DNA of 64,000 nucleotides, taken from contig JAFIGI010000025.1 in assembly GCA_020831465.1 (NCBI GenBank), forward strand, positions 45 through 64,044, given 5' to 3'. Within the stretch, counting starts at the first letter, position 1; every line of letters starts with the position of its first letter. The notes below the pieces were generated by a model. It was not told where the DNA came from. It worked only from the letters and a program-made list of their open reading frames with translations, and searched no databases. Source of the stretch: Chlamydiales bacterium (GTDB lineage: Bacteria > Chlamydiota > Chlamydiia > Chlamydiales > JAAKFR01). Below, in pieces: positions 1,307 to 49,048 of this stretch. Both the position numbers and the translations under genes were made by a program.

Positions 1307-1338
1307 ATAATATCATTTCTAAATTAAGAAAATGTTAA
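1307..1338 (-). promoter_or_regulatory. TTAA-N7-TTAA box plus -10-like TATTAT at 11 nt
   Basis: Minus strand TTAA-CATTTTC-TTAA-tttagaaatga-TATTAT. Confidence 0.55.
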
Positions 1339-1343
1339 TACCT

Positions 1344-1359
1344 AACTGATTTTGCTATA
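1344..1359. repeat. End fragment of palindromic element family 1 (TATAGCAGAATC type)
   Basis: AACTGATTTTGCTATA, 1 mismatch to AACTGATTCTGCTATA at 17896-17911. Confidence 0.6.
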
Positions 1360-1360
1360 G

Positions 1361-2725
1361 CTACAAGCCCATGACAAGGGGAATGATCCAGTAAAACCCG
1401 AGAAAGATCATCAGGAGGGCGATGAGGCTAATCACCGTTCCCCCCTTGATGATGTCGGCGCTCTCCAAATAGCCCGTCATATAGGCTAAAACGTTCGGTG
1501 GAGTGGAGATCGGCAAGACCATGCCGGTCGTGCAGACAAAGGCAATCGTGATGGCGATGACCACTTTGTCAACTCCTTCAACCCCCAATGCGATGGGTAA
1601 AAGAAGACTCGCAGTCGCGGTGTTGCTCATGAAGGCGGAGAAGAGATAGGCAATGACTGAGAAGAGAATGATGAGTAAAAATTCGGGCTGGTCGAAGAAA
1701 CGAAAACCAAGTAGCCAATTTCCAAGATCAGTTTTTTCTGCTGCGACCCCTAGAGCAAGTCCTCCCCACATTAGGATCAAGACATCCCAATCGAGAGTTT
1801 TAATATCCTCTTTCACTAAAAGGCGGCTCGCCAAGAGGGTTCCGGCACAGAGAAGGGCCGTGACCGCCTCGGGAATCTCGTGAAGGGGTGAGGTTACAAA
1901 AAGAATGATCGTTCCGCACGCAACGATGAGAACCTCTTTGCCCTTTTTGGCAAGCGGCTCGCGTGGAAGTTTGAGATCGACCTCCTTGAGAGAGGTGGGA
2001 AAGAGAAGAAATAAGAGCCAGCTGGCCAAGGCGATCAGCAAAAGGACAAGAGGAACTCCCATGAGCATCCACTGCAAAAAAGTGACATCGACGCCATAGC
2101 CTGTTAAAAGACCAATAGCGATGGCGTTGGGCGGAGATCCGATCGGCGTGCCGATACCTCCTAAATTCGCGCTGAAAGCGATCGCTAGAACGAGGAGCTT
2201 ACGAAAAGAGACCTCCATCGTCGACTGTTTTAAGCACGGGGAGAAGATCCCCAGCATCAAAAGAGCGGAGACTGTGTTGGAAATCCACATCGACAAAAAG
2301 GCGGTTGCCAGCATCGCTCCGAGCACAATCCAATAGGGACGGGTGCCGAAGTAGCCGAGAAAACGGGAGGCCAAAAAGGTGTCGACCCTGTATTTACGAA
2401 GGGCAGCGGCAAGGGTAAAGCCCCCGAAAAATAACATGATGATGGGGCTGGCAAAGGGAAACAAAAAGGCAGTATAGCCGGTCTTGTCCATCTCCAGAAC
2501 ACCCCCCGGCCTGGCAAGGGAAAAAATCAGAAGTAGAATCAGAAGAAAGGAAGAGACAAAGGGAGGAAAGAGTTCAAACCCCCACAAAAAGCCAGCTAAA
2601 AGGAAGATGGTAAGGGCCCTTCTGACCGCTTCCGGAGCAATGCCCTCCAAAAAGAAATAGAAGAGAAGGCAAAAAACAATCCCCAAAAACCCGAGAAGGG
2701 CTTTTTTGCCAAGCTTAAAAGCCAT
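1361..2725 (-). CDS. SLC13/DASS family sodium:dicarboxylate/sulfate symporter
   Basis: Multi-TM; FLSMWISNT, GGIGTPIGSPPNAIA, FMSNTATA, LPISTPPN motifs. Confidence 0.9.
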   Translation of the reverse strand: MAFKLGKKALLGFLGIVFCLLFYFFLEGIAPEAVRRALTIFLLAGFLWGFELFPPFVSSFLLILLLIFSLARPGGVLEMDKTGYTAFLFPFASPIIMLFFGGFTLAAALRKYRVDTFLASRFLGYFGTRPYWIVLGAMLATAFLSMWISNTVSALLMLGIFSPCLKQSTMEVSFRKLLVLAIAFSANLGGIGTPIGSPPNAIAIGLLTGYGVDVTFLQWMLMGVPLVLLLIALASWLLFLLFPTSLKEVDLKLPREPLAKKGKEVLIVACGTIILFVTSPLHEIPEAVTALLCAGTLLASRLLVKEDIKTLDWDVLILMWGGLALGVAAEKTDLGNWLLGFRFFDQPEFLLIILFSVIAYLFSAFMSNTATASLLLPIALGVEGVDKVVIAITIAFVCTTGMVLPISTPPNVLAYMTGYLESADIIKGGTVISLIALLMIFLGFYWIIPLVMGL

Positions 2726-2726
2726 C

Positions 2727-3404
2727 TTATCCGTTTAAAGAACTTTCCCAGTGCTTGACAAAGTCGAGGAGGCGTTCTTTGGAAGGCTTGGTGCGGAAAA
2801 AGGCGCGCGTTTTCTCGTTCGCATTGATGTGAGCCACCTTCGCAAGAAGGTTCAGGTGGTGACGATCTTCGCTGGCAAAAAGGAAAAAGAGAGTATGAAC
2901 AGCTTCCCCATCGAGTGATCCATAGTCGATTGGATGCGTTGGATAGACGACCATCATCACATCGTAATGGGTATTTAAAAGAAAATCACGGGTGTGGGGC
3001 ACGGCAATTCCATGCCCTAGGGCGGTCGACATCATCTGTTCCCGGTCCATAAAAAGATCGGTCAAGACTTCAGGGTCGAGGTCAAACCGCTGCCCCATGT
3101 GGCGCATTGTCTTCCGGATCACCTCTTCCTTACTCTCTCCCGAGACGCCATCCAAGACCTCTCCCCGGTAGAGCGCCCGGTAAAGGCTGAACTGCATATT
3201 TCCCTTTTGAGGCTGCTCTTCAGACTCTTCTTCAAAATTGCCCTCAAGCTTCTGCTGAATTAGCCAATCTTCAATCTCGCAGCGGCTGAATCGGTATTGG
3301 CGATTGATGCGGTATGCGGGAATCTTCCCATCGGCCAGCCAGCGGCGGACCGTTGTTTCAGAAATGTTCAGTAACTCGGCTACATCTCTAATTTTTAAAT
3401 CCAC
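2727..3404 (-). CDS. ptsN: PTS IIA(Ntr)-like protein with N-terminal excisionase-type HTH (CT290-like)
   Basis: LKIRDVAELLNISETTVRRW HTH; STALGHGIAVPH phospho-His motif. Confidence 0.9.
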   Translation of the reverse strand: MDLKIRDVAELLNISETTVRRWLADGKIPAYRINRQYRFSRCEIEDWLIQQKLEGNFEEESEEQPQKGNMQFSLYRALYRGEVLDGVSGESKEEVIRKTMRHMGQRFDLDPEVLTDLFMDREQMMSTALGHGIAVPHTRDFLLNTHYDVMMVVYPTHPIDYGSLDGEAVHTLFFLFASEDRHHLNLLAKVAHINANEKTRAFFRTKPSKERLLDFVKHWESSLNG

Positions 3405-3405
3405 C

Positions 3406-3903
3406 CTATATCCCCCTAAAAAGGGCTATAATGTCTTCCGGTTTGGTCAATTGCAAGATTTTTTTTCTACGCTCCTCATCCTTGATAGCCAAAGTCAACC
3501 TGGAGAGCAGCTGAAGATACTCTGTCTGTTTGTCATCTGGCCCGCCGATCATAAAGACAAGACGGACGGGAACTCCGTCGAGAGCTTCCCATGCAATCCC
3601 CTTGCGATGGATGCCGATGGCAATAAAGAAGGTATCGTAACCCGGTAGTTTAGCATGGGGGACCGCTACTCCCATCCCAATCCCGGTAGAGACGATCTGT
3701 TCCCGCTCCAAAATCGCTTGATAGAAAGCCTCTTTCTCTTTCAATTTCCCTTGCTCGTCGAGCAAGTCGACAAGCGAACGGAGGGCGGCATCCCGGCTCT
3801 CAACCTCTAGCAATTTGACCAACGAGGGATTGAGGTATTTTGAAATCAATAAATGGGGGCCGTTTCGCTTTTGTTGCTGCTTCGATGGAAACATTTTTCT
3901 CAA
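3406..3903 (-). CDS. ptsN: PTS IIA(Ntr)-like protein (CT291-like)
   Basis: [19 protein letters not shown] motif; synteny. Confidence 0.9.
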
Positions 3904-4343
3904 TGCACTCCTGTGTGTCCAAAGCCTCCGCTGCCGCGTCCGCTTGGGAGAAGAGCATCGACTTTTATAAAGCGCGCTCTCACAAGAGGCGCCACAACGA
4001 TTTGGGCGACGCGCATCCCCGGCTCGACGATAAAATCATCATGTCCATGATTGATCAGAATCACTTTGAGCTCACCGCGATAATCGGAGTCGATCGTACC
4101 GGGGGTGTTGAGAACCGTTATTTGATGTTTAAAGGCGAGCCCGCTTCGGGGACGCACCTGGATTTCATAGCCTTGGGGAATCTCGAAAAAAAGCCCTGTT
4201 GGGACGAGAGCTGATTGACCCGAAGGAATCGTTAAAGGAATGTTTAAATCGGCACGCACATCGGCGCCGGCTGCACCCTCGGAAGCGTACTCAGGGAGAT
4301 CTTCCCTATCGGTTATAAGAGGAATTTCAACATTTTGTTCCAT
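3900..4343 (-). CDS. dut: dUTP diphosphatase
   Basis: [35 protein letters not shown] motifs. Confidence 0.97.
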
Positions 4344-4363
4344 AGTGAAAGGATGATTGCTTT

Positions 4364-5263: not shown

Positions 5264-5289
5264 AGGAAATGAGTATATTTTATTAAACA

Positions 5290-5322
5290 AATAACCGTCT
5301 ACTTAAAAAGCAGACGGTTATT
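5290..5322 (-). terminator. Intrinsic terminator after sod
   Basis: AATAACCGTCT...AGACGGTTATT stem followed by TGTTT on the minus strand, just past the sod stop. Confidence 0.6.
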
Positions 5323-5333
5323 AAAAGTAAATT

Positions 5334-5969: not shown

Positions 5970-5983
5970 TGTTCTCCTCAGTG

Positions 5984-6607: not shown

Positions 6608-6620
6608 ATTAGAACATATC

Positions 6621-6635
6621 TTAATGTTTTCTTAA
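6621..6635 (+). promoter_or_regulatory. TTAA-N7-TTAA box
   Basis: TTAA-TGTTTTC-TTAA, 25 nt upstream of the Inc-like ORF 6661. Confidence 0.5.
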
Positions 6636-6660
6636 ATTTTAAGTCTTCAAGGAGAAGCTT

Positions 6661-6936
6661 ATGAGTCGATCTGTAACCCCCCCCTTACCTGACAGTTTTT
6701 CGTTTACCCCTAGTCAAAATAACGTCACCCCAAGAAAGGTAGCTACAGTGGCGGCAGCTGTCCTCCTAACGTGCATTCTCGCCTTAACTGCATGTATTCT
6801 CATTTCCCAATACCCCGCCGCTTCTTCCGCCTTCATCACAACTTTCAGCATCCTCGGTATCGGAAGTCTGATCACCCTCAGCATTGCGCTCTGCAAACAT
6901 TACAAAAAACCGATTGCCTTTCCATTCAAAGGTTAA
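6661..6936 (+). CDS. Small Inc-like protein (bilobed hydrophobic domain)
   Basis: S/T/P-rich N-terminus, two close hydrophobic helices, AAGGAG RBS; sits between hemD and hemC on the opposite strand. Confidence 0.7.
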   Translation: MSRSVTPPLPDSFSFTPSQNNVTPRKVATVAAAVLLTCILALTACILISQYPAASSAFITTFSILGIGSLITLSIALCKHYKKPIAFPFKG

Positions 6937-7573
6937 ACAGAGAATGCATTTCTCTATCTCCCTTCCGTGCAAGGATAGCAAGCTGTCCTTGCAAGGGAGC
7001 CGTCTCTCCCGGTAATCTGATCCGGTTGAGATCGGTTAATCCCAAACGGATAAGCGCCGCTTCGGCGATGACAACGCCGTCGACCTCACCGCTCTCTAGT
7101 TTTGCAAGACGCTCTTCAATTGTTCCCCTGATATCGACAAAGAATAGATCTTCGGTGAGAGTGCGGACCATCTCCTCGCGCCGTACCGAAGAGGTCGCAA
7201 TTACAAACGCTTTTGACAACCGCTCCCCTTTACGCATTACCAAGCTGTCCGAAGGATCGACTCCTTTTGTCAGCTTAATCAGCTCAAGACCTTTTGGAAG
7301 GGGTTCGGGCAAATCTTTCGCCGAATGGATCGCGATACGGCACTCCCCTCTTAGGAGCATCTCGTCGATCTCGCGCGTAAAAAAGTCCGTCTTATCGAGT
7401 ATGCGTAATGAAGTTGTCCGGTCGCGGTCTCCGACTGTTTTCACATAAACCGGCTCAAAAAGGAGATGCGCGTATTCGGCCTGAACTTCTTCCACTTGCC
7501 GCCTCGATAAATTGGAGTCGCGCGCTCCTACTTTAATTGAAAGCCGCTCGGATCGCTTCTTCGACACGTTCAA
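6926..7573 (-). CDS. hemC: Hydroxymethylbilane synthase, short chlamydial type (exact start uncertain)
   Basis: KVGARDSNLS, KTVGD, IHSAKDLP, TSSVRR, DIRGTIEERL, QGQLA. Confidence 0.9.
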   Translation of the reverse strand: MNVSKKRSERLSIKVGARDSNLSRRQVEEVQAEYAHLLFEPVYVKTVGDRDRTTSLRILDKTDFFTREIDEMLLRGECRIAIHSAKDLPEPLPKGLELIKLTKGVDPSDSLVMRKGERLSKAFVIATSSVRREEMVRTLTEDLFFVDIRGTIEERLAKLESGEVDGVVIAEAALIRLGLTDLNRIRLPGETAPLQGQLAILARKGDREMHSLFNL

Positions 7574-8879: not shown

Positions 8880-9039
8880 AGGAGGGAATCGATTTCACAA
8901 TTAAAGAGTTGACACAATCATAGCTTCTTTTGCTTTTTTCAGCTGGAGAAAAAATATACCAGCTCTGGAATCTTCTTAGAGTCATCACATTTTTTCACCT
9001 CCCTACAAAAAAGTAGAGAGGTGAATTCTTGGAGAAAAA

Positions 9040-9537: not shown

Positions 9538-9552
9538 TTAAGACTAAATTAA
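9538..9552 (-). promoter_or_regulatory. TTAA-N7-TTAA box (a second, 1-mismatch box at 9473-9487)
   Basis: TTAA-GACTAAA-TTAA in the intergenic region upstream of ORF 9396. Confidence 0.5.
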
Positions 9553-13669: not shown

Positions 13670-13692
13670 CAACCAAACGATATGGAGTAAAA

Positions 13693-17479: not shown

Positions 17480-17511
17480 ATTTTAATTACATTTTATTGA
17501 AAAAATATTAA
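17480..17511 (-). promoter_or_regulatory. TTAA-N7-TCAA box plus TAAAAT at 11 nt
   Basis: Minus strand TTAA-TATTTTT-TCAA-taaaatgtaat-TAAAAT, upstream of ATG 17465. Confidence 0.55.
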
Positions 17512-17704
17512 CATACGATAAATTTACACGTTTTTTATCGAAAAAAAGAATAGTCTGACACCTTCACATTATATGGGGCTCTGTTTCGCAATTCCTAGGA
17601 TAGCGAGCCCCTGCGCAGCTTCGGCAAGCATTTCCGCCACATCTATAGCCAAGGTGTCAGCCGAGCACTAAAGGCGGGGCTACTTTCTCGGATTCATACA
17701 TCTT

Positions 17705-18046
17705 ATTTGAAAGAGAACAACGCCATCAATGACCAAAGTCCCTGAATATAGCAGAATCAGTTGAAAAATTTACATTTTGACCTGCGTGAAAGCCCCGTGA
17801 TTGACCGATCATAAGTGAACCCATATTTCTAATATTGGTTCACTTATGATCGATCAAGCCCGGGAGCTTTGACGCGGTGAAAATGTAAATTTTTCAACTG
17901 ATTCTGCTATAAAAACCAATGCCTATAATCAACGCCCCTGCCACTACTGAAGTTGCAGCAATAACGGCTTGAGCTTTTCTTGAACAATTTCTAGAAATCA
18001 CTTCTGATTGTGTTATGGACAAAGTGGCTAAGGAAATATTAGTCAT
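17705..18046 (-). pseudogene. Small Inc-like gene interrupted by a family-1 palindromic element (3' end uncertain)
   Basis: ATG 18046 MTNISLATLSITQSEVISRNCSRKAQAVIAATSVVAGALIIGIGF runs into the element and stops (YSRIS*); hydrophobic sequence resumes past the element. Confidence 0.55.
17747..17911. mobile_element. 165-bp full-length palindromic MITE-like element, family 1
   Basis: Perfect 32-bp terminal inverted repeat TATAGCAGAATCAGTTGAAAAATTTACATTTT; pairing continues with few mismatches to a 3-nt loop. Confidence 0.85.
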
Positions 18047-29114: not shown

Positions 29115-29166
29115 GAGAAGCGGAGGAGAAAAGCTTCCTAGCCCGTCGCGCGTTTTGAAGGGGGAT

Positions 29167-29207
29167 TATAGCAGAATCAGTTGAAAAATTTACATTTTCA
29201 TCGCGTC
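29167..29207. repeat. Single arm of a family-1 palindromic element
   Basis: TATAGCAGAATCAGTTGAAAAATTTACATTTTCATCGCGTC; 40/41 identical to the reverse complement of 17871-17911. Confidence 0.85.
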
Positions 29208-34575: not shown

Positions 34576-34607
34576 TTAATTACGCCTTAACATTTTAGAA
34601 GTAAACT
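34576..34607 (+). promoter_or_regulatory. TTAA-N7-TTAA box plus TAAACT at 11 nt
   Basis: TTAA-TTACGCC-TTAA-cattttagaag-TAAACT, 7 nt before the giant ORF. Confidence 0.55.
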
Positions 34608-34614: not shown

Positions 34615-37600
34615 ATGTTTCGTACAAACTTGTTCGACTCTCTTTTTACGGCTGCCGACAGGCCGGACCTTCGATCTTCAACCTCTCTATCAGAGGAAAA
34701 AACCGTCATCAAAACTGTTGATCCTGTCCCTATAGAGGCGCGCCAATTCGGCCAGCGCCTCGTTGCAAACCAACTGGAAAACTCTCCAATAGAAGGGCAA
34801 GACTCTTTGGCAAGCTTAGCCTATTGGATTGAGATTGTCTCTCTTTTTTTAAAGGGGGAAGGGGAAATTCTTGAGACAGGAATTTCCCCGAAACATTTTG
34901 CCGAACTCAAAGAAATTTTGGAAGACTACTCCCGCTTGAAGAGCCTCATTCAGAAAGCGAGAGGAGATGAGGAAGACCGAAGGAAATGCGCCCAATCGGT
35001 TCAAATGGAGATCAAAGAGAAACTCTCCCTTGGAAGAAGGGTTGCCTATCTTCCCCTAGGATACGCGGCGGGCCCCTTGAACGAAGGGCACGCAATTCCC
35101 CTTAAATTCCGCATGTTTAAAAATTTGGTTGAAGGAATGTGTTTAAATCTGGGGGAAGGTGTCCAGATGCACCCTGAACTGATGTGGAATCAAATTGAGG
35201 TTCTCTACCATTTCCAGAGCTTTCCAATTCATTTCGACCCGGAAATCCTCTTCGGCCCAAAAGGCGAAAATATGCTTTGCCGATTGATCCGCCTTCAAAA
35301 TGAAGAACCTGGCTGGGAGGATCTCCCCTATTGCGCCGAGGATTGCTATGGCCCTTTTTTAGAACTGGGGACCGTTCAATCAACCTTCGACTCGAAGCTT
35401 GCCGACCGAGCTGAACCCGCGCAAAGAGGGCCGATTTGCGCTGATATGGCGACCTTGCTCATTATTAAAGATCTTCTGATAGACCTGGGCTACCAAAGAG
35501 TTCAAATCGAGAGCTTAATCCTTAATGAAAAATATTGCGCCCTTATCAGTTTTTACGCGCATTTAGAGAGAAAAGGATCGTATAACGAGTGGTCATTGCT
35601 GAAAAAGGGAGTCATCCAATACGCAGTTGATCTTGCCCAAGCATATGAAAAGAAGATCGTCCAACCAGAGGAACTCTCCGCGCTACGAAGAGCGTGCGAA
35701 GAGCTCTCGCTAAAAGTAGAGAGGCGCGTCGACTCTCTCAAACCTCTTCCTCTACTACATCCGGCGTTGAAAACAGATTCTTTTTCCTATCAAGGCTTTT
35801 CTGAAGAAGAGTTGCAAGGGACAGGTTTCCAAGAAATTTCAACCCCGAAAGAAGAGAACGTCTGCCTTCACCCACCCAAAAAATTGCCGGCGCCCGAGAG
35901 GTTATTGCTCAATCTCAAAATCCGGCATGAGATGCTGGAAAAAGCCAAGCCGGAAGCGATACGCGCTTCTTATTTTGTGATTCAGCTCTTTCTTCTTCTC
36001 CCTGTTCCCAACCCCTTCGAGAAAGATTATTGGGACGCCATCCCTTCCTCTCATATTCCGGAAGTGCTTCGACTTCTCGCTCTTTTGGTCTGTAAACAGC
36101 TCGCATGGAAAGAGGAGCAGAGCCACTATCTCAATATCATTGCCGTTCACACGGCATACGCGATTGCCGACAAGCTCGCAAGAAGGGTTCCCGAAATGCG
36201 GTTAGAGGGTTTTGCATCACCTTTTTACGGATCCAGCATCGAAAAAAAGGAACAAACCCGCCTCTCCTCAATCTTTTTTAACCCGGGTTTCGCAAAAAAG
36301 GAGGAGTATTTTGAATTCGACCTTCTTCCCTTCGGCGCGGGAAATAGGCAGTGGAACGCGATTCGCCGCTATTTTGAAACTCAAGACGAAAATTGCCAGG
36401 GGCCCACGCTTTTTGCACTTTCCAAATCGCACATCAACGTAACCGAAGGTGTACGAACGCTTCAAAGCGGCTTGTTTTTTAAGAGGCAGCTCCCCTCTCC
36501 GGAATCGGAACATCTCTCCTATTTGCAGCAGTTTTTTCCAAAAGATTTTAAAAGCGGCAATGTGGAACAACTCGCGGCTACTTTTGCCAAATTTTGGCTA
36601 AACCGTGAAGGAAAAATGTTGCCCGCGGAATATGAGCCTCTTTATTTTCTTGCTTACTCCGCTTGGACGGCTTTTACAGGCCTGCCTAATCGGATTTCCG
36701 ATTGGAGGGGAGTTGTCAAAAGATGGGAAGAAAAGATCCCCTCTTCAACCGACATCTTTATTTCTTTTTTAGGTGATAGATCACATCGTTATATCCAGCG
36801 AAACGGAGACGAAATCGTTCATAAATTCCGCAATCGTGAAGAGGAAAGAGAAAATGGGGAAAACAAAGCTCTATGCCTCCAAAGAGCCCCTTGCTCCTAT
36901 TTGAGCGTGAAAACATCTCAGGAGTGGAGACGCATCTTCTCGACGCCTGAGATGCGCGTCACCTCCATCATCCAATGGCTCCGAAAAAACCTTTCAAGTA
37001 TCTCCTCTAACCACTTTTCCCTTATCGAATGCGGCTTGTTTGAGCCGAGCTTTCTAGATAAAAAGATCTGCGAAGAGCCCAATTTGGTGAAAGAGCTCCA
37101 TCTTATCCTCAGAGATGGAATTACATACTTTTGCAAGCAGGAATCTCGAGATCATATGCTTTTTTGCATCAGAACCGCAATTCTTCTCGAGTCATTCGCC
37201 CCAAGTGTAGACTCAACTATTTTGATCGCGCTGGAAAACGACCTATTAAACATGATCGAAGAGCAGAAAGAGCCTGAAGCCGAGTTCTACCATCTCTTGC
37301 TTCTCTATCGGATTGCGCTGCCAAGGAACGAAGATTCCGCTGCGGAGCTCGCAAAGGCAAAATTTTATCTTAAATACTACGCTTCTGAGATGAGTGGGAG
37401 CACGAGCAGCTTACCTCACTGGCTGGTCTCTGAAAGCAGATTTTCCTTTTTTCAATCCTTGGAAGGCATTGGATTCTCTTCTCCTTCGTGGAAGAAAGAA
37501 GTAGCCCGGCATGTCCTGAGACGGACAGTGCCCGATTTCCCCCAAAATCAAGCAATAAAGGAGGCACCCTATCCTTTCATCAAATATGGCGATTATACTT

Positions 37601-40600
37601 TAGACCTCGAAAATTGCCTCATAAAAAGAGGTCATAACGAAACTTTGATTCGGATCGCATCTCACCCTTATTTTAAATTGCCTGCATGGAGTTCGGCAGG
37701 AAAACTGATCTCCTTGGACGGAAACTCGATGCTGAAAAAGAACGATCAAGGGGAATATCTTCTCTTTTCCAAAGTATCCGTGGATACTCTCAGTTCAAGA
37801 TGGTATAGGCTCTCTTCGCTTCAATTTAAGCTCTTCGAGAATGAACAAATCCTGATCGAAGATGAGGAAGGAACGCGCGACGAACAGAGGCATATCCTGA
37901 TCGGAGAGAAATGCCTGGTGGTTCCGCAGAGAAGAGGCGAGTGGAAAATCTTTCAATTGCGCCAGGGTCGAAAGAGCGGCCTTGTGCTCGCAAACCAGAG
38001 GAAAATCAGTGCTGATTTATTCTCACGGTTGAAGATGGAAGAGGAATTTCGCTGCTGGTCCAACCCGAAAACAGACCAAATTCAAGAGATAGATCTTTTC
38101 AAAGCCGATCTTCTTTTCCGTTTCGAAAGAGGAGAGGGATATCTCTCCATGCAGTTTCCCGACTATCTCCTTGCCGCTGAACAAAGCTTGAAAGAACTGA
38201 ACCACTACCGGGGCTCTCTTGTCCTTTCAAACGGCGCAAAACTAGCCTTGATCCTTCCCTCAAAAAAATTGCGGGCGGAAGCAGAAGATTTTTCTCCCGT
38301 AGCCGTTCCTCAAAAGGAATATTTCTGCTCGAAGGAGAGATATTTTTTCTATACTGTAGACCAAGTTGCCGAATTACTCATAAGCGATGATCCTTTGGCA
38401 AATCTCTACCTGGTACTGCTTTTTTCCAAGCAGCGCGACTATAAAAAAGCATTTCGTTATCTTGAGCGCGCTCACTCGTATAAGCGCTGCTATAAACAAA
38501 ATCAATCCTTTTCCGCCTCTCTCATGCAGGCTTTTCTCAATTTGAAGGATGAATCTCCCGAAGCGCTCGCATTCTATCTTCATCTTGCCTTGTTTTATTT
38601 GGAAAACGCTTCGCAGCTTATTCATGATCACTATGGGGAGGACAATCAACACCATAATCTTGTAGAGAGTTTATGCCTTTGGACGGGCAAGATGTATGCT
38701 CGATACATTCCGGCCCTTTCTTCTCATTCTGCAAGTCCCGTACCTTACTACTGCCGGCTTACACCCGTCCAGGAAACCCTTTTGCTTTCAAAACTCAAGC
38801 ATGTCCTGAAAAATAAAGATGAGCTGAATAAAAAAAATCTCCTTCGAAAATTTGGATTGGACCCATTTAGGAAAGAAGCTGAGCCTCTCCTCTTATCGCT
38901 CAACCTAAATTGGATCCCTTCTTTAGAATTCCGTGAACGTTTGCTTGTTGAAAAGAGAGTGGAGAAAAGGATCCCCAAGAGTTTCTATCCCGCGCAGCTT
39001 GCGGCTTATTTTTTCCTGCCTCTAGTGCCAATTTCAGAGAGATTGTCATCCTACCCCCCTATATTCTCGGAAGATGAGCGCAGGACCCCTCTGCAGGAGG
39101 ACTTTGTGCGGATCAGCCTTGAGGCTCTCCGTAGGAATTTTCCCCTCCTTTATGAACGGGCCAGAAAGGGCAGCGGCACTCTTGATATTTACTACATCCT
39201 GCGCAGCGAAGCGGGAATAAATTCGTCCTATCTTCTCGCCTATGCAGCCCTTCTACATTACATTGGAAACTACCCACGCGATTTTTCCGATCTGAATTTT
39301 GGGGAAGAGCGTGAGAAAAATCTCAGCATTTTCAGAAAGATTGTGGAACGCGCTTCTCGATTTTACGCCAACCTCATTCGACAAGCTTCCGTGATCTCAA
39401 ACCTCTACCGGCGGACCGTAACTTTCAGCTACAGCAATAAAACGATTCTCGCGCTGCCTCCTTCTGAAAAGATTGCTCCTCTGAAGTGGGAATTTTCCGA
39501 AAAAGAGCAAGAGGAACTTTCAGCCTTCAGAGAGGAGGTCTACACTCGTTTTTTAAAAGAGGATTTGAGAAAATCGACCCTCCCCATCATTCCTTCAGAT
39601 AGCCTCTTCGCATTCGATTCCTATTCTCCTTCTGGGCCGACGGAAAAAGAGCTTGTCGAAACGCTCCGCGCGGGGCATCGCATGCTCGCCGATAGGAAAT
39701 CGGGTAGAACGATCTACGGTTTGAAAGAGGGAAGAAGGCTCGACACAATTCAGAAAAAAGCCGATCTCCTCCTTCAGAAAAAACGGCTAGAATTGCGCGA
39801 TCTCAAAGAAGAGACGGAAAAATTGGCAAACCGTCTTCCAAAAGAGGCCGACCTCATATTTTTACGCAAGCTGGGGCAAGATTTGCCAACCGTGATCATA
39901 GAGGAGATTCTGACCGCTGCTTATGAACAACAAAACCCCGCACTTGTGCAAGAGGCAAATCCCCTATTAACTCCCAAAGAGGTGCGGCAGATCCTTTTCG
40001 ACACAATCAAGTACCACTTGCTCCGCATTCAAATTCTGCAATTGGAAAAAGCGGCGGTCGCGCCCGATATCCAAGCCTTTGGTGAAGCTTTAGCTCTTCA
40101 CACAACCCTTTGCCCAACCAAAGAGCCTGAACTTTACCTTTATCAATCCTGCTCGGGAAAAATTTTATGGCATGAGCAGGCTAGACTTATCGAATGGTAC
40201 TACGAGAGAGCCATGCGCCACCGCCTTACCCTTTTTGCGGCGCCTGCCGGAGTCGGAAAAACGACTCTCTTTCAGCCCATTGCCATGAAGTGGCTGCAGC
40301 GAAAAGGCTATTTCCCGGTCAGCGCCTCCCCTACTCCCCTCTATTTGGTCGACCGAGAGGGACTCCGCTCAGCGGCGCAGCAAGCGTTTGATTTGCAGAT
40401 CGCTGTATGCGAGCTCGCGCTCGGTACTAAAGCGGACGCAAAAGATTTTCAATGGCTTTTTGAAAAACTCTCTCAATACCAAACGCTCAAAGGGCTGAAA
40501 CTCACGCCCTCCGTCTATTTAGCCCTTCTGCTTAAATACGAGTTGGCCCTCGAATGCGAAGATGTCGAATCAGTCCGCTGGATCAGCCTGACGCTGGATC

Positions 40601-43302
40601 TTTTTAAACGTAAATCGGTTGGTTTGATAGATGAGGCGAGGCAAAACGCAAGCCCTTTCTCCCAATCAGAAATCGGAATCGGAAAGCCCCTTCCCCTCCC
40701 CCCCGTCGACAGAAAAGTTTTTGTCGAAATCTACCGCGCCCTGACCTCCAAACAACTCCTTGGGGTTGTTGGATTAACCAAAAACCTTCAAGCTACCGTC
40801 GATCCCGAACTCTATCCCGAGATCAAAGCCGCGGCTTTTAGATTCCTTGTAGATTCGCCTTATCTCGACATTCCTGAAAAGGAGAAAAAGAATCTGCTCG
40901 CCTACTGGATGAGCGAAAAAGAGGAACCCGAGTGGCTCCTTTCAATCGCCCCTACAGATCAGGGGCGCGCTCTCGAACTCGTCAAGATTTATTTTGAGGA
41001 GTTTTTCTACGAAGCGATGAAATGCGTTGGCAATATGCAGCATCGCCCCTCACAGAAAATAGATGAAGAGATCCATCTTCCGGCCCGTAAAAAGCAAGCG
41101 AGCGATGCCTATTTCAAAGAGGTTTACGCAACTTTGATCACCACGATACAAGGGACGCTGCAGATCGGCCTAAGCTCAGCCCAAGCTGAGAAATTGCTCA
41201 AGGTTTTGAAAAGAGCGCACGTCAATGAAGTCGGCTACTCGGAAAATCTCTCCGAGACGGAGAAAATGCTACGTCGATGGCTAAACAATGATTCTATCCG
41301 CCTCTACTCTCTTTCCTTTGAGAATCGAGGGACAGTCGAGAGAGTGACCGATCTCGTTTCCCGCAATCCCGAGGCGATTTTGTTCTACTTGGAACACTGC
41401 GTCCTACAGCAGGTGACCTATTGCCCGGAACAGCTGGTCGTCACGCCGATACACTTTCTCAACGCCTTTCAAAAAGCGGTTCTCTTTTCTGCAGACCCGG
41501 GCCCTGCTGAAATGTATGCGCTGCCTGAAAAAAAGGAAGCAGTCGGTCTTAATACGACTTTTTTGGCTCATGTCATTCATAAGCTCTCACTTCCGGAAAA
41601 CAGCGACCTCGTCCTCTTTCCGATCTTTACCCGTCCATTGGAATTTTTCGAATGGCTTTACCAACTTAAAAAACGACTCTTCATCGATCTCAAAATGATC
41701 GCTGATGCCGGCGGCGCCTTGCGCGATTTTTCTAACGAGGAGATCCGCCGTGATTTCTTTGCGTTTTTGGAGGCGCATCGAGAAATAAATTACGATGGGC
41801 TCATCCTCTTCGCCGAGTCAAGCGGATTAAGCGAGCAGAGCGAACAGCTCCTTTACCTTAAAGGGGAGAAAGAACCAAAAATCTTGAAAGGCAATGACAT
41901 AGTAGAAGCCTTAACGATGCATGGCCTTAGGTGGGAGTCCCTCAACCTCTTGACTTTTATCGATCCCAGCCATTGTACGGGGGCCAATATCAAGCAGCCT
42001 CCTCAAGCGCGGGCTCTGCTCCTTTTGGGTGAGGATCTGACTATTGGGGACCTTATCCAGGGGGTGATGCGTCTCAGGGAATTTCTGCATAACCAAACCA
42101 TCTCATGGGGAGCATCCTTTCCTCTTGCGCGAAAAATCGAGCATACTTTAGGGCGAAAAATCGATCCTCTTGCTTGTCTCGCTTGGACATTGCAAAACGA
42201 AGGAGTCCGCATCGATAACGAGATTCTTTTGAGCGCCTACCAGCAAATCACCTATCTAATTGAAAAGGAGGCGCGTGAGGAACTCGAAGCGCATCTGAAC
42301 AAGCCGGAAAAACAAATTTCCACTTGGAAGAAGTACCGCTCCGGTTTCGTCAGCCAATACGAATGGGATCCGATCCGGCGTTTCAAGATTAAAAGGGGGG
42401 AGCGGGAGACCCGAAGCGTTCTAATGGAGTTTGCCCAAGAGCTTTATAGCCGTTTCTCCTATTCTAAATCTTTTAAAACTCTACAGGACTCTCTAAATCC
42501 GATCATCGGGAATGTAGACAAAAGAAAACCTACCCTTTCCTCTTCAGATTCTTTCTCAATGAAAAGGCAGACGCAAATGCGCGTTCATCAGGAGCAAAAG
42601 AGAAAGCTTGACTTGATCTCCGTCAATCACACATCGCTCGACCCGGACATTCAAACCCCTCTTCCCAAATGGCTTGTGATCGACCGACCCGATTTTCTTA
42701 CTCAATTCGCCTCCTTCTCTTCTCCTTGCAAAGAGCTCTTTGGCTCGAAAGGCTTAACCGAGGGCCTTTTTTTGACGCACAATCTTGTCCAAACTGCACA
42801 GACAGGAGCCTCTTCTCTCGGTTTAGATTATTTGAAGCCGGCTAATTATTTCCTTTTAATCGAAGAAGAACAGTTATGCGCTCTTGCTCTTTCTGACGAG
42901 GAGGCCTCTTTTTTCCAAAAACAGCTTATTTCGAAAGAAAAAGGTGGAAATCTAAAGATTGCGCTGATTTGCGCAGACGGTAATTTTGCGCAAAATGGAA
43001 GGGGATCCTTCGCCTTTTCTCCCAGTATTTTAACGCATACCTTTGTTCAAGACTGCGTGATCGACCTGGGATTGATGCAGTGCCGTCTTTACCATCCGCT
43101 TCGCTTTTCGCAGAGGATAACCCATTGGAACGATTTTTGGCCCCTGTGGCTAAGAATCAAAAAGTCTCAACCTTCATTGAGTGAAATCGAGCCTGAGCAT
43201 ATCGAACGTTTGGTTCCAAAGCATATTAAGGAGGGACCGCAAGAAGAAAAAAACAGCAAAAGTTTTTTTCAACTTTTTACAAAGAAATTAAGCTTGCATT
43301 AA
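34615..43302 (+). CDS. Giant 2895-aa protein; N-terminal H/N/Q/C protease-like motifs and C-terminal SF2/SecA-like P-loop ATPase (DUF3638-like)
   Basis: GH159AI, LN178LGEG, Q270RGPIC275; APAGVGK1882TT, LID2006EA, LFSAD, HCTGANI, IQ2482GVMRLR. Confidence 0.75.
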   Translation: MFRTNLFDSLFTAADRPDLRSSTSLSEEKTVIKTVDPVPIEARQFGQRLVANQLENSPIEGQDSLASLAYWIEIVSLFLKGEGEILETGISPKHFAELKEILEDYSRLKSLIQKARGDEEDRRKCAQSVQMEIKEKLSLGRRVAYLPLGYAAGPLNEGHAIPLKFRMFKNLVEGMCLNLGEGVQMHPELMWNQIEVLYHFQSFPIHFDPEILFGPKGENMLCRLIRLQNEEPGWEDLPYCAEDCYGPFLELGTVQSTFDSKLADRAEPAQRGPICADMATLLIIKDLLIDLGYQRVQIESLILNEKYCALISFYAHLERKGSYNEWSLLKKGVIQYAVDLAQAYEKKIVQPEELSALRRACEELSLKVERRVDSLKPLPLLHPALKTDSFSYQGFSEEELQGTGFQEISTPKEENVCLHPPKKLPAPERLLLNLKIRHEMLEKAKPEAIRASYFVIQLFLLLPVPNPFEKDYWDAIPSSHIPEVLRLLALLVCKQLAWKEEQSHYLNIIAVHTAYAIADKLARRVPEMRLEGFASPFYGSSIEKKEQTRLSSIFFNPGFAKKEEYFEFDLLPFGAGNRQWNAIRRYFETQDENCQGPTLFALSKSHINVTEGVRTLQSGLFFKRQLPSPESEHLSYLQQFFPKDFKSGNVEQLAATFAKFWLNREGKMLPAEYEPLYFLAYSAWTAFTGLPNRISDWRGVVKRWEEKIPSSTDIFISFLGDRSHRYIQRNGDEIVHKFRNREEERENGENKALCLQRAPCSYLSVKTSQEWRRIFSTPEMRVTSIIQWLRKNLSSISSNHFSLIECGLFEPSFLDKKICEEPNLVKELHLILRDGITYFCKQESRDHMLFCIRTAILLESFAPSVDSTILIALENDLLNMIEEQKEPEAEFYHLLLLYRIALPRNEDSAAELAKAKFYLKYYASEMSGSTSSLPHWLVSESRFSFFQSLEGIGFSSPSWKKEVARHVLRRTVPDFPQNQAIKEAPYPFIKYGDYTLDLENCLIKRGHNETLIRIASHPYFKLPAWSSAGKLISLDGNSMLKKNDQGEYLLFSKVSVDTLSSRWYRLSSLQFKLFENEQILIEDEEGTRDEQRHILIGEKCLVVPQRRGEWKIFQLRQGRKSGLVLANQRKISADLFSRLKMEEEFRCWSNPKTDQIQEIDLFKADLLFRFERGEGYLSMQFPDYLLAAEQSLKELNHYRGSLVLSNGAKLALILPSKKLRAEAEDFSPVAVPQKEYFCSKERYFFYTVDQVAELLISDDPLANLYLVLLFSKQRDYKKAFRYLERAHSYKRCYKQNQSFSASLMQAFLNLKDESPEALAFYLHLALFYLENASQLIHDHYGEDNQHHNLVESLCLWTGKMYARYIPALSSHSASPVPYYCRLTPVQETLLLSKLKHVLKNKDELNKKNLLRKFGLDPFRKEAEPLLLSLNLNWIPSLEFRERLLVEKRVEKRIPKSFYPAQLAAYFFLPLVPISERLSSYPPIFSEDERRTPLQEDFVRISLEALRRNFPLLYERARKGSGTLDIYYILRSEAGINSSYLLAYAALLHYIGNYPRDFSDLNFGEEREKNLSIFRKIVERASRFYANLIRQASVISNLYRRTVTFSYSNKTILALPPSEKIAPLKWEFSEKEQEELSAFREEVYTRFLKEDLRKSTLPIIPSDSLFAFDSYSPSGPTEKELVETLRAGHRMLADRKSGRTIYGLKEGRRLDTIQKKADLLLQKKRLELRDLKEETEKLANRLPKEADLIFLRKLGQDLPTVIIEEILTAAYEQQNPALVQEANPLLTPKEVRQILFDTIKYHLLRIQILQLEKAAVAPDIQAFGEALALHTTLCPTKEPELYLYQSCSGKILWHEQARLIEWYYERAMRHRLTLFAAPAGVGKTTLFQPIAMKWLQRKGYFPVSASPTPLYLVDREGLRSAAQQAFDLQIAVCELALGTKADAKDFQWLFEKLSQYQTLKGLKLTPSVYLALLLKYELALECEDVESVRWISLTLDLFKRKSVGLIDEARQNASPFSQSEIGIGKPLPLPPVDRKVFVEIYRALTSKQLLGVVGLTKNLQATVDPELYPEIKAAAFRFLVDSPYLDIPEKEKKNLLAYWMSEKEEPEWLLSIAPTDQGRALELVKIYFEEFFYEAMKCVGNMQHRPSQKIDEEIHLPARKKQASDAYFKEVYATLITTIQGTLQIGLSSAQAEKLLKVLKRAHVNEVGYSENLSETEKMLRRWLNNDSIRLYSLSFENRGTVERVTDLVSRNPEAILFYLEHCVLQQVTYCPEQLVVTPIHFLNAFQKAVLFSADPGPAEMYALPEKKEAVGLNTTFLAHVIHKLSLPENSDLVLFPIFTRPLEFFEWLYQLKKRLFIDLKMIADAGGALRDFSNEEIRRDFFAFLEAHREINYDGLILFAESSGLSEQSEQLLYLKGEKEPKILKGNDIVEALTMHGLRWESLNLLTFIDPSHCTGANIKQPPQARALLLLGEDLTIGDLIQGVMRLREFLHNQTISWGASFPLARKIEHTLGRKIDPLACLAWTLQNEGVRIDNEILLSAYQQITYLIEKEAREELEAHLNKPEKQISTWKKYRSGFVSQYEWDPIRRFKIKRGERETRSVLMEFAQELYSRFSYSKSFKTLQDSLNPIIGNVDKRKPTLSSSDSFSMKRQTQMRVHQEQKRKLDLISVNHTSLDPDIQTPLPKWLVIDRPDFLTQFASFSSPCKELFGSKGLTEGLFLTHNLVQTAQTGASSLGLDYLKPANYFLLIEEEQLCALALSDEEASFFQKQLISKEKGGNLKIALICADGNFAQNGRGSFAFSPSILTHTFVQDCVIDLGLMQCRLYHPLRFSQRITHWNDFWPLWLRIKKSQPSLSEIEPEHIERLVPKHIKEGPQEEKNSKSFFQLFTKKLSLH
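43288..43302 (+). promoter_or_regulatory. TTAA-N7-TTAA box, overlapping the last codons of the giant ORF
   Basis: TTAA-GCTTGCA-TTAA, 49 nt upstream of ORF 43352. Confidence 0.45.
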
Positions 43303-43351
43303 GAATCTGTTTCAGCAATACTTTTACTAGAAAAATTAAGTATGTAAAAAG

Positions 43352-43765
43352 ATGGTTCAAGCTACTCAATCCCCCTCAAGAAGAACCCAAGAAGATCAAA
43401 ATTCGGGCGCCCTCCCTGGCTTTGATCTTGTCAATCAAGCGACAGAGAACTTAAAGTCTGTAATCAACAATGGCGAACGCGCGATTACGGCTAAAAAGGC
43501 TTGTGCCTATCTCGGCTACCGCTTGTTCTCCTATTCCTTTATCCCGGCTCTGGCGAATTTAATCTCGGTAGTTGTCTCCGGAATTCTCTGCTTAGCCACT
43601 CTTCCACTGCGCTGCTGCTCAAAGAGTATCAATCAGTACTTCTTTAAATGTTGTATGGGTTCTTTGGGGTATCTCAGCGTAAATATCTTGATGGACCTGA
43701 CGTGCGATTTCCGCCAGCTCGGCAGACTCTGCAGCTGCACTTCGCCCACCTTTTATGAAATTTAA
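43352..43765 (+). CDS. Cys-rich hydrophobic hypothetical protein (Inc-like)
   Basis: Polar N-terminus; long hydrophobic segment; CC pairs. Confidence 0.65.
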   Translation: MVQATQSPSRRTQEDQNSGALPGFDLVNQATENLKSVINNGERAITAKKACAYLGYRLFSYSFIPALANLISVVVSGILCLATLPLRCCSKSINQYFFKCCMGSLGYLSVNILMDLTCDFRQLGRLCSCTSPTFYEI

Positions 43766-44334: not shown

Positions 44335-44490
44335 AAATTTACTAAATATTTTCTTATGGTTTCTCTTAGTAACAAAATAATATGATATGATAATCTAAAG
44401 ATTAGATTAAAGAGAAAAAAACCCTCCCTTGCACGGATAGGAGGGCATTTGCTACACTTGCCCAGTTAAAAATAGAGAGGCTGGAGACAA

Positions 44491-46932: not shown

Positions 46933-47438
46933 CCTCCTGGACGCAATACAGCCAATCCAAAACCATCCCGCCTGACCGGTTAGCCGAGAAGGCAGCGCAG
47001 ATCCGCATCGAGGGAAAATCGATTGCAACCTTGAACGGATCGTTCGACCTGCTCCACGCCGGCCATATGTACATGATCTACGAAGCTTCGAAGAGAGCGG
47101 ATGTATTGATCCTTGCCGTGAACAGCGATGAATCGGTGTGCGCCTATAAAGGCCCTGAGAGACCCATTGTCCCCCTCCCCTACCGCATGGAAATCCTTAC
47201 GGCGCTCGCATTTGTCGACTTCGTTACCTGGTTTGACGAAACCGATCCCCGCTCTATACTTGAAGTCATTCGACCAGATGTCCACGTCAACGGCGAAGAG
47301 TATGGAGAGGATTGTATTGAAGCCGAAGTTGTCAAAAAGAATGGAGGTAAGCTCCACCTTGTAGACCGGATTCCCGGGCTGGCTACCTCCGAAATCATTA
47401 AACGAATAGAAGGTTTGCAAAAAAGCACATGCGTTTGA
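46929..47438 (+). CDS. RfaE domain II-like nucleotidyltransferase
   Basis: NGSFDLLHAGH, VNSDESV, KGPERP, RPDVHVNG, TSEII. Confidence 0.85.
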   Translation: MTSWTQYSQSKTIPPDRLAEKAAQIRIEGKSIATLNGSFDLLHAGHMYMIYEASKRADVLILAVNSDESVCAYKGPERPIVPLPYRMEILTALAFVDFVTWFDETDPRSILEVIRPDVHVNGEEYGEDCIEAEVVKKNGGKLHLVDRIPGLATSEIIKRIEGLQKSTCV

Positions 47439-48583
47439 TCTGTACGATCAACACCTTTGAAACGGATGAAAACCCTTACGAATTCTCGTACTATCTGACG
47501 AGCCAAGGGGTAGATAACCAGTGCGAAGAACTTTCGGATGAAAACTACCGCATCTGGGTTTACGAGGAGGACCAGGTTGACAAAGCCCATTCCTTCTATC
47601 AAGAGTATAAAACCCATCCTCATGATCCGCGCTACCGGGTTCGTTATGAGACGGCATCGCGGGCCACGCACGAGCAGCTCGAGGATGAGCCCGAATTAAA
47701 AGCGCGGCCCCCCAGGCGCCGCCTTCTCTCCCCCGCCCCTTACGGCCCGGTCTCCATCCTGGTTCTATTGATTGTCGCTCTTCTCTTTATATGGGCTCAA
47801 ATCCAACGCGAAACCGTCATTCCCCCTCAAATTTCCGGCATTATCCAAGCCCCTATCCTCGCCCCAATCGAAAGAGAGCTGATTTACGACTACCCTCCCT
47901 ACTTCCAAGAGCGCGATAGGCTCTTCACAATTTATACACCTAAGGAGATCGAAGAAGAAAAACCGCCTCCCCCTGAAGCGCTCGAGCTGATCCGGGAATT
48001 GCGCGGCTCCACTACATGGATGGGAATCTACGACCCCATTGTCAGGGCGATCCGCACTCCCGACCAGCCTCTTCGCCTTGACGGGCCGCTATTCGTCAAA
48101 ATTTCGGAAGGGGAGATTTGGAGGATCGTCACCCCTGCATTCCTTCATTTCGACCTGCTCCACATCTTTTTTAACGTCCTCTGGTTTATCCTTCTCGGAA
48201 ACCAGATCGAATTCCGCCTTGGATGGCTGCGTTATTCCCTTCTGATCGTTGCCTCCGCGATTGTTTCGAATACCTCTCAGTATTTGATGAGCGGCCCTTT
48301 CTTCATGGGCCTCTCCGGGGTCGTCTGCGCTCTCGCTGCATTTATCTGGGCCCGGCAGCAAGTCGCTCCCTGGGAGGGATATCTACTCCACCGCTTCACA
48401 CTCATCTTTCTCGCAATTTTCGTCATCGGAATGTTTCTGCTCCAAACCGTCTTTTTCTTTTTGCAGATCGCAGGCACATTCGAAGCGGCGATCGGGATTG
48501 CGAATACTGCACACTTGACCGGTGCCTTGGTCGGCTACCTTCTCGGCCGCATGCGCTTTTTTTCAATCAGACGCCAGAAATAA
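47429..48583 (+). CDS. Rhomboid intramembrane serine protease (GlpG-like)
   Basis: WR, HIFFN, GLSG, AHLTG. Confidence 0.92.
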   Translation: MRLICTINTFETDENPYEFSYYLTSQGVDNQCEELSDENYRIWVYEEDQVDKAHSFYQEYKTHPHDPRYRVRYETASRATHEQLEDEPELKARPPRRRLLSPAPYGPVSILVLLIVALLFIWAQIQRETVIPPQISGIIQAPILAPIERELIYDYPPYFQERDRLFTIYTPKEIEEEKPPPPEALELIRELRGSTTWMGIYDPIVRAIRTPDQPLRLDGPLFVKISEGEIWRIVTPAFLHFDLLHIFFNVLWFILLGNQIEFRLGWLRYSLLIVASAIVSNTSQYLMSGPFFMGLSGVVCALAAFIWARQQVAPWEGYLLHRFTLIFLAIFVIGMFLLQTVFFFLQIAGTFEAAIGIANTAHLTGALVGYLLGRMRFFSIRRQK

Positions 48584-48590
48584 AATTTTA

Positions 48591-48622
48591 TTAACAAAAA
48601 ATTAATACTATTTGTTTATAAT
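48591..48622 (+). promoter_or_regulatory. TTAA-N7-TTAA box plus TATAAT at 11 nt
   Basis: TTAA-CAAAAAA-TTAA-tactatttgtt-TATAAT. Confidence 0.6.
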
Positions 48623-48653
48623 TTGTCTTATAAACTAAAATAAGGAAGTTATA

Positions 48654-49013
48654 ATGTTTGTTACACAGAAATCTGGAACAGAACATCTTAGTTTGTTTCC
48701 TGAGGAGCAAAAAAATTTTCAGAAGAAGTTAGAGAGCAATGAAGCCTCCGCTCTAAAAACCTGGATTATCGCTTCTGCCTTCCTTCTATTGATCGGAACC
48801 CTGTTCGCATTTGGTTTGGAGTTTGGTCTCCTCCCCTTCTTAGAAACGGCAAGCGCAATTTATCTAGGTGGTATTGGTATTATCGGTTTTTCTACTTTTT
48901 TAGGTGCAATCATGGGTGCCCATTATTGTAAAATGAAGCACAATAAAATCGTATCTGAGATACCTTTAGTTAAAGAGATGCAGGAGAATCAGCCCTCAAA
49001 AATAGTTAAGTGA
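48654..49013 (+). CDS. Inc-like protein
   Basis: Bilobed hydrophobic domain at about aa 37-88; low GC; AAGGA RBS. Confidence 0.75.
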   Translation: MFVTQKSGTEHLSLFPEEQKNFQKKLESNEASALKTWIIASAFLLLIGTLFAFGLEFGLLPFLETASAIYLGGIGIIGFSTFLGAIMGAHYCKMKHNKIVSEIPLVKEMQENQPSKIVK

Positions 49014-49016
49014 ATC

Positions 49017-49048
49017 TTAATATCAATTTAACAATTGAATGAGATAAT
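49017..49048 (+). promoter_or_regulatory. TTAA-N7-TTAA box plus GATAAT at 11 nt
   Basis: TTAA-TATCAAT-TTAA-caattgaatga-GATAAT. Confidence 0.55.

Follow-up and report, generated by a model that had tools for sequence, protein, structure and literature searches.

What is marked by the short repeat TTAA-N7-TTAA (hereafter the box) that recurs in front of genes scattered along a stretch of chlamydial DNA, and which protein reads it? The stretch in question, which we call the window, comprises 64,000 nucleotides (nt), i.e. bases 45-64044 of contig C65. Its parent genome (1.80 Mb in 69 contigs, 47% G+C, 94.3% complete) is, judging from the genes of the window and from the nearest relatives, that of an uncultured environmental member of the Chlamydiota: the window encodes a CT398-like coiled-coil protein, and proteins 84-96% identical to the response regulator of this genome carry the label 'Chlamydiales bacterium'. 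The initial annotation of the window had placed the box over the -35 position of promoters, at a fixed distance from the -10 hexamer, and had proposed that one activator uses it to co-regulate scattered genes for secreted proteins. We think it somewhat probable that these sites form a class of -35-less sigma-66 promoters in which repeats of TTAATATT are most likely read by the only PhoB-type regulator of the genome, acting as an activator.

Spacing of the repeats and distance to the -10 hexamer

Perfect boxes number eight in the window, against 1.54 ± 1.15 expected, and none of 100 dinucleotide shuffles reached this count. Seven had been listed initially and all of them are present; the total is eight because a further copy (49006-49020) overlaps the one at 49017-49031, giving a triple TTAA in phase with a period of 11 base pairs (bp). 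The one-mismatch copies (17497, 9473 and 12274) and the variants with an 8-nt spacer (12307 and 56067) are likewise as first described. As a control that we judged better than shuffles, we counted TTAA-Nk-TTAA for k = 0-24 in the fully non-coding DNA of the same genome, in which a crude open reading frame (ORF) caller had identified 1588 ORFs (90% coding, with 40% G+C in the non-coding DNA). There are 54 non-coding pairs at k = 7, whereas the other 24 spacings yield 13-32 pairs each (mean 20.9, standard deviation 4.5; z = 7.4). A preference for N7 and a comparison with AT-matched non-coding DNA had been named beforehand as tests of the idea, and N7 alone is enriched. The same spacing is unremarkable in coding DNA (25 pairs), where just the usual 3-base periodicity is visible. 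No second peak occurs in non-coding DNA one helical turn further out (20 pairs at k = 18), and general DNA curvature is therefore not the cause. When the half-site is lengthened by one letter and coding DNA is included, TTAAT-N6-TTAAT is found 31 times genome-wide, against 4-18 times at other spacings. Triple repeats in 11-bp phase are found at four loci of the genome.

We then define a -10-like hexamer as TAnnnT with at most one mismatch to TATAAT, and a composite as TTAA-N7-TTAA followed by N11 and a -10-like hexamer; the one-mismatch class has one mismatch in the eight core letters. Among the 62 boxes that are not fully coding, 13 have such a hexamer exactly 11 nt after the box, while other offsets have 0-7. 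Even the seven hexamers at offset 0 have a trivial origin, because the half-site itself reads TTAATAT. When box spacings (3-11) are set in a grid against distances to the hexamer (6-16), 13 perfect sites fall into the cell (7,11) and 0-4 into each of the others. With one core mismatch, the same cell holds 20 sites, against 0-17 elsewhere (mean ~6.7). From these 13 perfect and 20 one-mismatch sites, we estimate that the genome has roughly 25-35 promoters of composite design. The five hexamers that had been read in the window 11 nt past a box (TATTAT, TAAAAT, TAAACT, TATAAT and GATAAT) are all real.

Once oriented by their -10, the 13 perfect sites read TTAA-T(7)A(7)T(10)T(7)-n-n-n-TTAA-T(10)A(9)T(9)T(9)-n-n-T-T-T(12)-G(7)-n-TATAAT. 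Because both half-sites read TTAAT(A)(T)(T) in this orientation, the repeat is direct: the box is TTAATATT twice, with an 11-bp period. The oriented matrix of these 13 sites has no TTG at -35 (16-18 bp spacing), which together with the (7,11) cell backs the proposed location of the box at the -35 position. The -10 itself is near consensus, with an exact TATAAT in 8 of the 13 sites and a TGn extension (TG at -15/-14) in 7. In one-mismatch sites, it is the upstream half-site that degenerates, mostly to TTTA (8 of 20). At 9 of the 13 perfect sites (p = 0.015) and 11 of the 20 one-mismatch sites (p = 0.003), the next 100 nt downstream contain the start of a called gene of that strand, the comparison figure for other non-coding -10-like hexamers being 527 of 1480. 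The genome has ordinary promoters as well: around 1165 non-coding -10-like hexamers, TTG occurs 54 times at 17-bp spacing and 10-41 times at other offsets.

This anatomy bears on whether the boxes and the hexamer might be the recognition elements of an alternative sigma factor. The genome does encode three proteins with sigma-70 region 4 (frames of 554, 263 and 180 amino acids, aa), but the -10 is the housekeeping TATAAT with its TGn extension, and two identical direct repeats 11 bp apart do not suit a single -35 element read by sigma. Known sigma-28 and extracytoplasmic function promoters look different. We regard this explanation as very improbable.

Conservation of the promoter and the genes behind it

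We surveyed 61 sampled genomes of the phylum for the strict composite (TTAA-N7-TTAA-N11-TATAAT), using the reversed pattern as control. The hits were distributed as follows.

Same genus, 3 genomes (this one, G050 and G058): 8, 11 and 10 hits
Family f1, 8 genomes: 44 hits, against 3 in the control
Families other than f1 and f3, 30 genomes: 21 hits, against 9 in the control
Family f3, 23 genomes of 1.0-1.3 Mb: 1 hit, against 1 in the control

The coding DNA of the window is only ~75% identical to that of the same-genus genomes; positional counterparts of the promoters are kept all the same. In both G050 and G058, a counterpart of the promoter at 48591 immediately follows the conserved gene upstream. 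TTAA, TTAA and TATAAT stand there in register, whereas hardly any alignment is possible for N7, N11 and the small proteins downstream. At two more loci, the downstream proteins are 68% and 33% identical and the boxes and -10 are invariant. Boxes and -10 are thus kept while spacers and proteins diverge, which is the pattern expected of a functional element that is read sequence-specifically. At a fourth locus (C44:26367-26398), a near-identical 32-bp cassette is found in G050 (L127) and G058 (L128) in front of proteins without detectable similarity (131 aa here, ~210 aa in both relatives), so that these genes may not be orthologous. The arrangement suggests that either the genes were replaced while the promoter stayed, or the promoter is mobile.

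These data also address the simplest explanation, by which the boxes would be a by-product of AT-rich intergenic composition or of DNA curvature, with no specific reader. The sites do lie in locally AT-rich DNA, and the other spacings lead one to expect ~21 N7 pairs in non-coding DNA. Yet only N7 is enriched, there is no N18 peak, no grid cell other than (7,11) stands out, and the TTAA letters are kept in orthologous promoters where adjacent bases change. We find this explanation hardly credible.

The box had been said to mark scattered, lineage-specific genes, and the targets are indeed mostly orphans. A Pfam domain above cut-off was found in 2 of 15 scanned composite targets (an F-box protein and a cation-efflux transporter) and in 18 of 20 other genes (Fisher exact test, p = 1.1e-5), the latter being window genes away from boxes rather than a random sample of the genome. 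We called proteins Inc-like by crude hydropathy alone, i.e. by a two-lobed hydrophobic domain (~40-60 residues) near the N-terminus. This measure singles out 7 of 30 composite targets and, among all called genes, 63 of 1588 (p = 2e-4). A perfect N7 box lies at most 150 nt upstream of 9 of the 63 Inc-like genes and of 50 of the 1525 others; boxes of other spacings do so for 1-4 of the 63. Seen from the boxes, 15 of 62 with N7 spacing adjoin an Inc-like ORF of at least 60 aa on either side; the other spacings have 2-6 such boxes each and 49 of 383 taken together (p = 0.019). The proposed enrichment upstream of Inc-like genes is therefore statistically real, but the link is partial, since it involves 15 of the 62 boxes and 9 of the 63 Inc-like genes.

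Box loci in the window

The box and composite loci of the window are the following.

1307-1338, minus strand: composite promoter, TTAA-N7-TTAA (1338-1324), N11, -10 TATTAT (1312-1307)
6621-6635, no strand assigned: perfect box with no -10 at 11 nt, 25 nt upstream of an ATG (6661)
9538-9552, no strand assigned: perfect box with no -10 at 11 nt, 141 nt upstream of a 118-aa ORF (9396-9040, minus strand)
17480-17522, minus strand: degenerate triple TTTA-N7-TTAA-N7-TCAA, its second and third units each followed at 11 nt by a TAAAAT hexamer
34576-34607, plus strand: composite promoter of a 2895-aa ORF (34615-43302), box, N11, -10 TAAACT (34602-34607)
43288-43302, no strand assigned: perfect box that overlaps the stop codon of the 2895-aa ORF; no -10 at 11 nt
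48591-48622, plus strand: best example, TTAA-N7-TTAA, N11, TATAAT (48617-48622), with counterparts kept in G050 and G058
49006-49048, plus strand: triple TTAA in 11-bp phase (49006, 49017, 49028), N11, GATAAT (49043-49048)
56067-56098, plus strand: one-mismatch composite TTAA-N7-TTTA, N11, TAAAAT, ~300 nt upstream of the serine hydroxymethyltransferase ORF; status uncertain

Five of seven box loci lie directly upstream of ORFs with a two-lobed hydrophobic domain (90, 114, 118, 119 and 559 aa, the last behind a one-mismatch site). The initial annotation had seen an Inc-like or effector-like ORF behind each perfect copy. This is largely right, given these five loci and the giant 2895-aa ORF; it does not hold at 1324, where the sole downstream ORF has just 23 aa (~1273-1202) and sits inside a 340-nt gap between two convergent genes. 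The composite at 1307-1338 may drive a small RNA or a micropeptide.

The ORF behind the box at 6621 (6661-6933, plus strand, 90 aa) is not called in length-based lists; it has a good ribosome-binding site and a two-lobed hydrophobic domain. A 225-aa frame that overlaps it from a GTG (6771-7448) has no Pfam match and looks spurious. In the 118-aa ORF at 9396-9040, the hydrophobic segments are residues 34-61 and 66-91. At the degenerate triple, a TAAAAT hexamer occupies 17485-17480 of the minus strand, and the 559-aa ORF downstream (17465-15786, minus strand) has its two lobes at residues 25-59 and 61-79. The giant ORF starts with an ATG 7 nt past the -10 hexamer. Its same-genus counterpart in G050 does so after 6 nt, behind TTAA-N7-TTCA-N11-TATAAT (L107 around 1402, minus strand). 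Because the ATG is only 6-7 nt past the -10, the transcript would be leaderless, or the true start codon would be further downstream. The 2895-aa product shows P-loop/NACHT similarity only, below threshold. The box at 43288 precedes by 49 nt a 137-aa ORF (43352-43765) with a single 33-residue hydrophobic stretch (58-90). The promoter at 48591 ends 31 nt before a 119-aa ORF (48654-49013) with a hydrophobic domain at residues 31-89, and the 114-aa ORF downstream of the triple (49076-49420) has a similarly placed one at residues 30-90.

Triples occur elsewhere too. In both G058 (L096, 2445-2470) and G050 (L097, 1463-1488), the counterpart of window gene 49496-50407 is followed by a triple TTAA in 11-bp phase, of which the window has no perfect equivalent. 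In the same genome as the window, C16:7944-7992 holds a triple TTAA with composites on both strands; the divergent promoters serve ORFs of 342 aa and of 117 aa, the latter with two hydrophobic segments.

Two further results were set aside. An ATTA peak (44-fold) 16 nt upstream of -10-like hexamers belongs to a dispersed palindromic repeat and is unrelated to the box. This repeat, 166 nt long, lies at 17747-17912 of the window, with a partial copy at 29164-29207; on other contigs, numerous fragments of its ends occur beside numerous complete copies (95-99% identical). A weight matrix built from the composite sites and refined by iteration lost its specificity, its hits rising from 137 to 679 and 1112 as it moved into ordinary AT-rich DNA, and we discarded it.

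The candidate reader and its relation to known systems

Class II activation by regulators of the OmpR/PhoB family is classically recognised by direct repeats that cover the -35, spaced by one helical turn and held at a constant distance from the -10. Exactly one gene of the genome encodes an output domain of this type (Trans_reg_C). Its product has 236 aa and consists of Response_reg and Trans_reg_C. In our own reading of the sequence, the receiver looks canonical (acidic pocket, the aspartate of LDIMLPG, serine and lysine). Throughout the 36 sampled genomes that do not belong to families f3 and f11, the regulator is 63-98% identical (79% in G044, the representative of family f12); identity is 44-45% in f11 and 33-39% in f3. 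Its recognition helix and wing are nearly invariant across families. The genome also has 7 HisKA kinases. The suggestion that a regulator of the OmpR/PhoB family co-regulates the marked genes thus retains its best candidate in this sole family member, although the protein, with its canonical receiver, is the orthologue of the 'PhoB' of Chlamydia-related bacteria and is not ChxR-like.

ChxR had been named initially as a family member to be tested for binding. The ChxR of Chlamydia trachomatis belongs to the same protein family, as a distant homologue (33-39% identity), and binds a direct repeat, but that repeat, TCGATCA-N5-TAGATAA, i.e. TxGAxxx-N5 (PMC3960148), differs from the box. In the part of PMC4989314 available to us, to which all our statements on that paper refer, ChxR is described as lacking the phospho-accepting aspartate, unlike the regulator found here. 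Family f3, which has only the ChxR-type protein, shows 1 composite in 23 genomes. On these grounds, we reject ChxR as the reader of the box.

The 'PhoB' of Chlamydia-related bacteria is ~80% conserved, and the Chlamydiaceae have the aspartate-less ChxR in its place (PMC4989314). For Waddlia chondrophila PhoB, chromatin immunoprecipitation sequencing (ChIP-seq) and MEME gave a 21-bp consensus, WNTNAARAAANTGNWAAATTT, or (T/A)NTNAA(G/A)AAANTGN(T/A)AAATTT, which contains TNAA-N7-NWAA, and the targets were mostly hypothetical proteins plus a type III secretion chaperone, with no link to the classical phosphate genes (PMC4989314). Searched with at most 3 mismatches in the non-coding DNA of our genome, this consensus gives 88 hits against 40 for the reversed control, and it overlaps perfect boxes 7 times against 0. 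The core of the box at 1324-1338 fits every specified position of the TNAA-N7-NWAA stretch. The box promoters have in common with the Waddlia regulon an orthologous candidate regulator and mostly hypothetical targets; the Waddlia consensus is enriched here, with loose agreement in the spacer. They most probably belong to the chlamydial PhoB regulon first charted there. They differ from it by the sharp TTAATATT pair, the geometry (N11, no -35 and TGn), the triples and the many more sites. Since a PhoB motif and a regulon of hypothetical proteins had already been published from Waddlia ChIP-seq (PMC4989314), the underlying idea is not wholly new.

Despite its name, the regulator is, as judged from profile matches, not a true PhoB, in agreement with the published idea of a functionally specialised regulator. 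It scores 213.4 bits against the PhoB equivalog TIGR02154, whose cut-off is 296.2. Unlike in a true phosphate regulon, we found neither PhoU (PF01895) nor a PstS-type protein (PBP_like_2, PF12849) in the genome, whose 94.3% completeness leaves their absence unproven.

Under the reading that we favour, the housekeeping sigma factor (sigma-66) would use promoters that have, in place of the -35 hexamer, two and sometimes three direct repeats of TTAATATT. These would lie at about -38 and -27, 11 nt before a near-consensus and often TGn-extended -10. A dimer or oligomer of the PhoB-type regulator would bind the repeats head-to-tail, contact RNA polymerase from the -35 position and turn on transcription, as PhoB does at Pho-box promoters. 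The regulon so controlled, much expanded in this chlamydial family, would comprise mostly orphans, including many small two-lobed Inc-like proteins, the F-box protein and the 2895-aa giant, whose products may be secreted.

Several observations weigh against this reading. All gene calls come from the crude ORF caller, and the Pfam contrast has the non-random comparison set mentioned above. Chance accounts for ~21 of the 54 non-coding boxes, and ~20 of the excess boxes are not followed by a -10 at 11 nt; in the window, this applies in either orientation to those at 6621, 9538 and 43288. The match to the Waddlia consensus is loose in the spacer, whose first base is T here and R (C when reversed) there. 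There is no sign of autoregulation: the 322 nt that precede the regulator gene contain neither a perfect box nor a composite, and the same holds upstream of it at 3 related loci; only scattered one-mismatch boxes, none with a -10, were seen there. The box alone is enriched just in family f1 (149 against 73 in the control). G044 has 15 boxes against 14 in the control and family f8 shows no excess, even though the regulator there is ~80% identical and has the same recognition helix. Because the regulator is conserved in families without clear enrichment, the expansion in f1 needs a further explanation or another factor.

Such another factor might be a family-specific DNA-binding protein, distinct from the PhoB-type regulator, that reads the TTAATATT repeats. 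The restriction of box-alone enrichment to f1 and the lack of an autoregulatory site are what one would expect from it. We consider it doubtful, as no candidate protein was identified, repeats over the -35 are a hallmark of the OmpR/PhoB family, of which the genome has a single member, and the ChIP consensus of the Waddlia orthologue is enriched here and coincides with boxes. There is also a weak excess of composites outside f1 (21 against 9).

A near-perfect TGn -10 raises a different objection. Extended -10 promoters need neither a -35 nor an activator. The promoters described here could therefore fire without one, which works against activation by the PhoB-type regulator and makes a repressor operator a serious rival: Euo or another repressor would cover -38 to -24 of self-sufficient extended -10 promoters and act as a stage-dependent off switch. 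Besides the near-consensus -10s (8 of 13 exact TATAAT, 7 of 13 with TG at -15/-14), the family-specific expansion of the box under a phylum-wide PhoB-type regulator speaks for this arrangement. So does the consensus of Waddlia Euo, TTAAAAACAAATTTT, which has the form TTAA-N7-TTTT; this protein has tandem winged-helix domains and >100 targets (PMC4989314). We nonetheless hold the operator to be unlikely. A site that takes the place of the -35 and keeps a fixed 11-nt distance is typical for a class II activator rather than for a repressor, and the Chlamydiaceae, which keep Euo (PMC4989314), show 1 composite in 23 genomes. Euo in particular was rejected as the reader because its published consensus is not enriched in our non-coding DNA (100 hits with at most 3 mismatches, against 142 for the reversed control) and overlaps boxes less often than the control does (4 against 10).

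Similar promoters are known outside the phylum. The Pho-box of Escherichia coli PhoB, the TTAACA repeats of Bacillus subtilis PhoP and the sites of ArcA are all tandem direct repeats read by OmpR/PhoB regulators. Class II promoters with a Pho-box share with ours the tandem repeats one helical turn apart, the replaced -35, the short fixed distance to the -10 and a winged-helix response regulator. They differ in the half-site, in a regulator that here falls below the PhoB equivalog cut-off and in the targets, which here are orphan membrane proteins. The resemblance to CtrA, pointed out in the initial annotation, holds for the motif only. CtrA boxes are TTAA-N7-TTAA[C], and many CtrA-activated promoters carry the box over the -35, so that core and spacing are identical to those of the alphaproteobacterial box. 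However, the host is chlamydial, the half-site extends to TTAAT and not TTAAC, and the regulator is not CtrA-like: no CtrA model is among its 25 best NCBIfam matches.

Our search of the literature for a chlamydial PhoB regulon or for TTAA-N7-TTAA in Chlamydia returned PMC4989314 as the only relevant paper, plus an unrelated one on Caulobacter, and the accessible part of a comparative-regulation paper (PMC4652624) contains no 'TTAA' string and no such motif. Several features thus appear to be new, namely a half-site this sharp, the precise geometry of the promoter, triples in phase, an expansion specific to one family, the footprint before fast-evolving genes and the Inc-like link: we found none of them in the literature, the supplements of PMC4989314 (site lists and logos) aside.

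A response regulator that acts at a class II promoter is a classical type of mechanism, and the interest is accordingly for specialists. Genetic work on chlamydiae is nevertheless difficult, and for most of their effectors no homologue can be recognised. The signature offers a listing, from sequence only, of candidate host-interaction genes in uncultured chlamydiae. It also gives the conserved 'PhoB' regulator of Chlamydia-related bacteria a concrete candidate DNA target, and provides an example of a regulon that expands in one lineage while its regulator stays nearly unchanged. More tentatively, and as a possibility that we rate below an even chance, an ancestral two-component regulator of phosphate type may, in this family of environmental chlamydiae, have lost its phosphate regulon and been rewired as the master switch of fast-evolving host-interaction genes, which would encode Inc-like membrane proteins, the F-box protein and the giant as a P-loop protein. 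The 32-bp cassette (TTAATATT twice, an N-spacer and TGnTATAAT) would then be kept, and even re-used before unrelated genes, as the genes themselves turn over. If this were true, the cassette alone would predict effectors that lie beyond the reach of homology searches.

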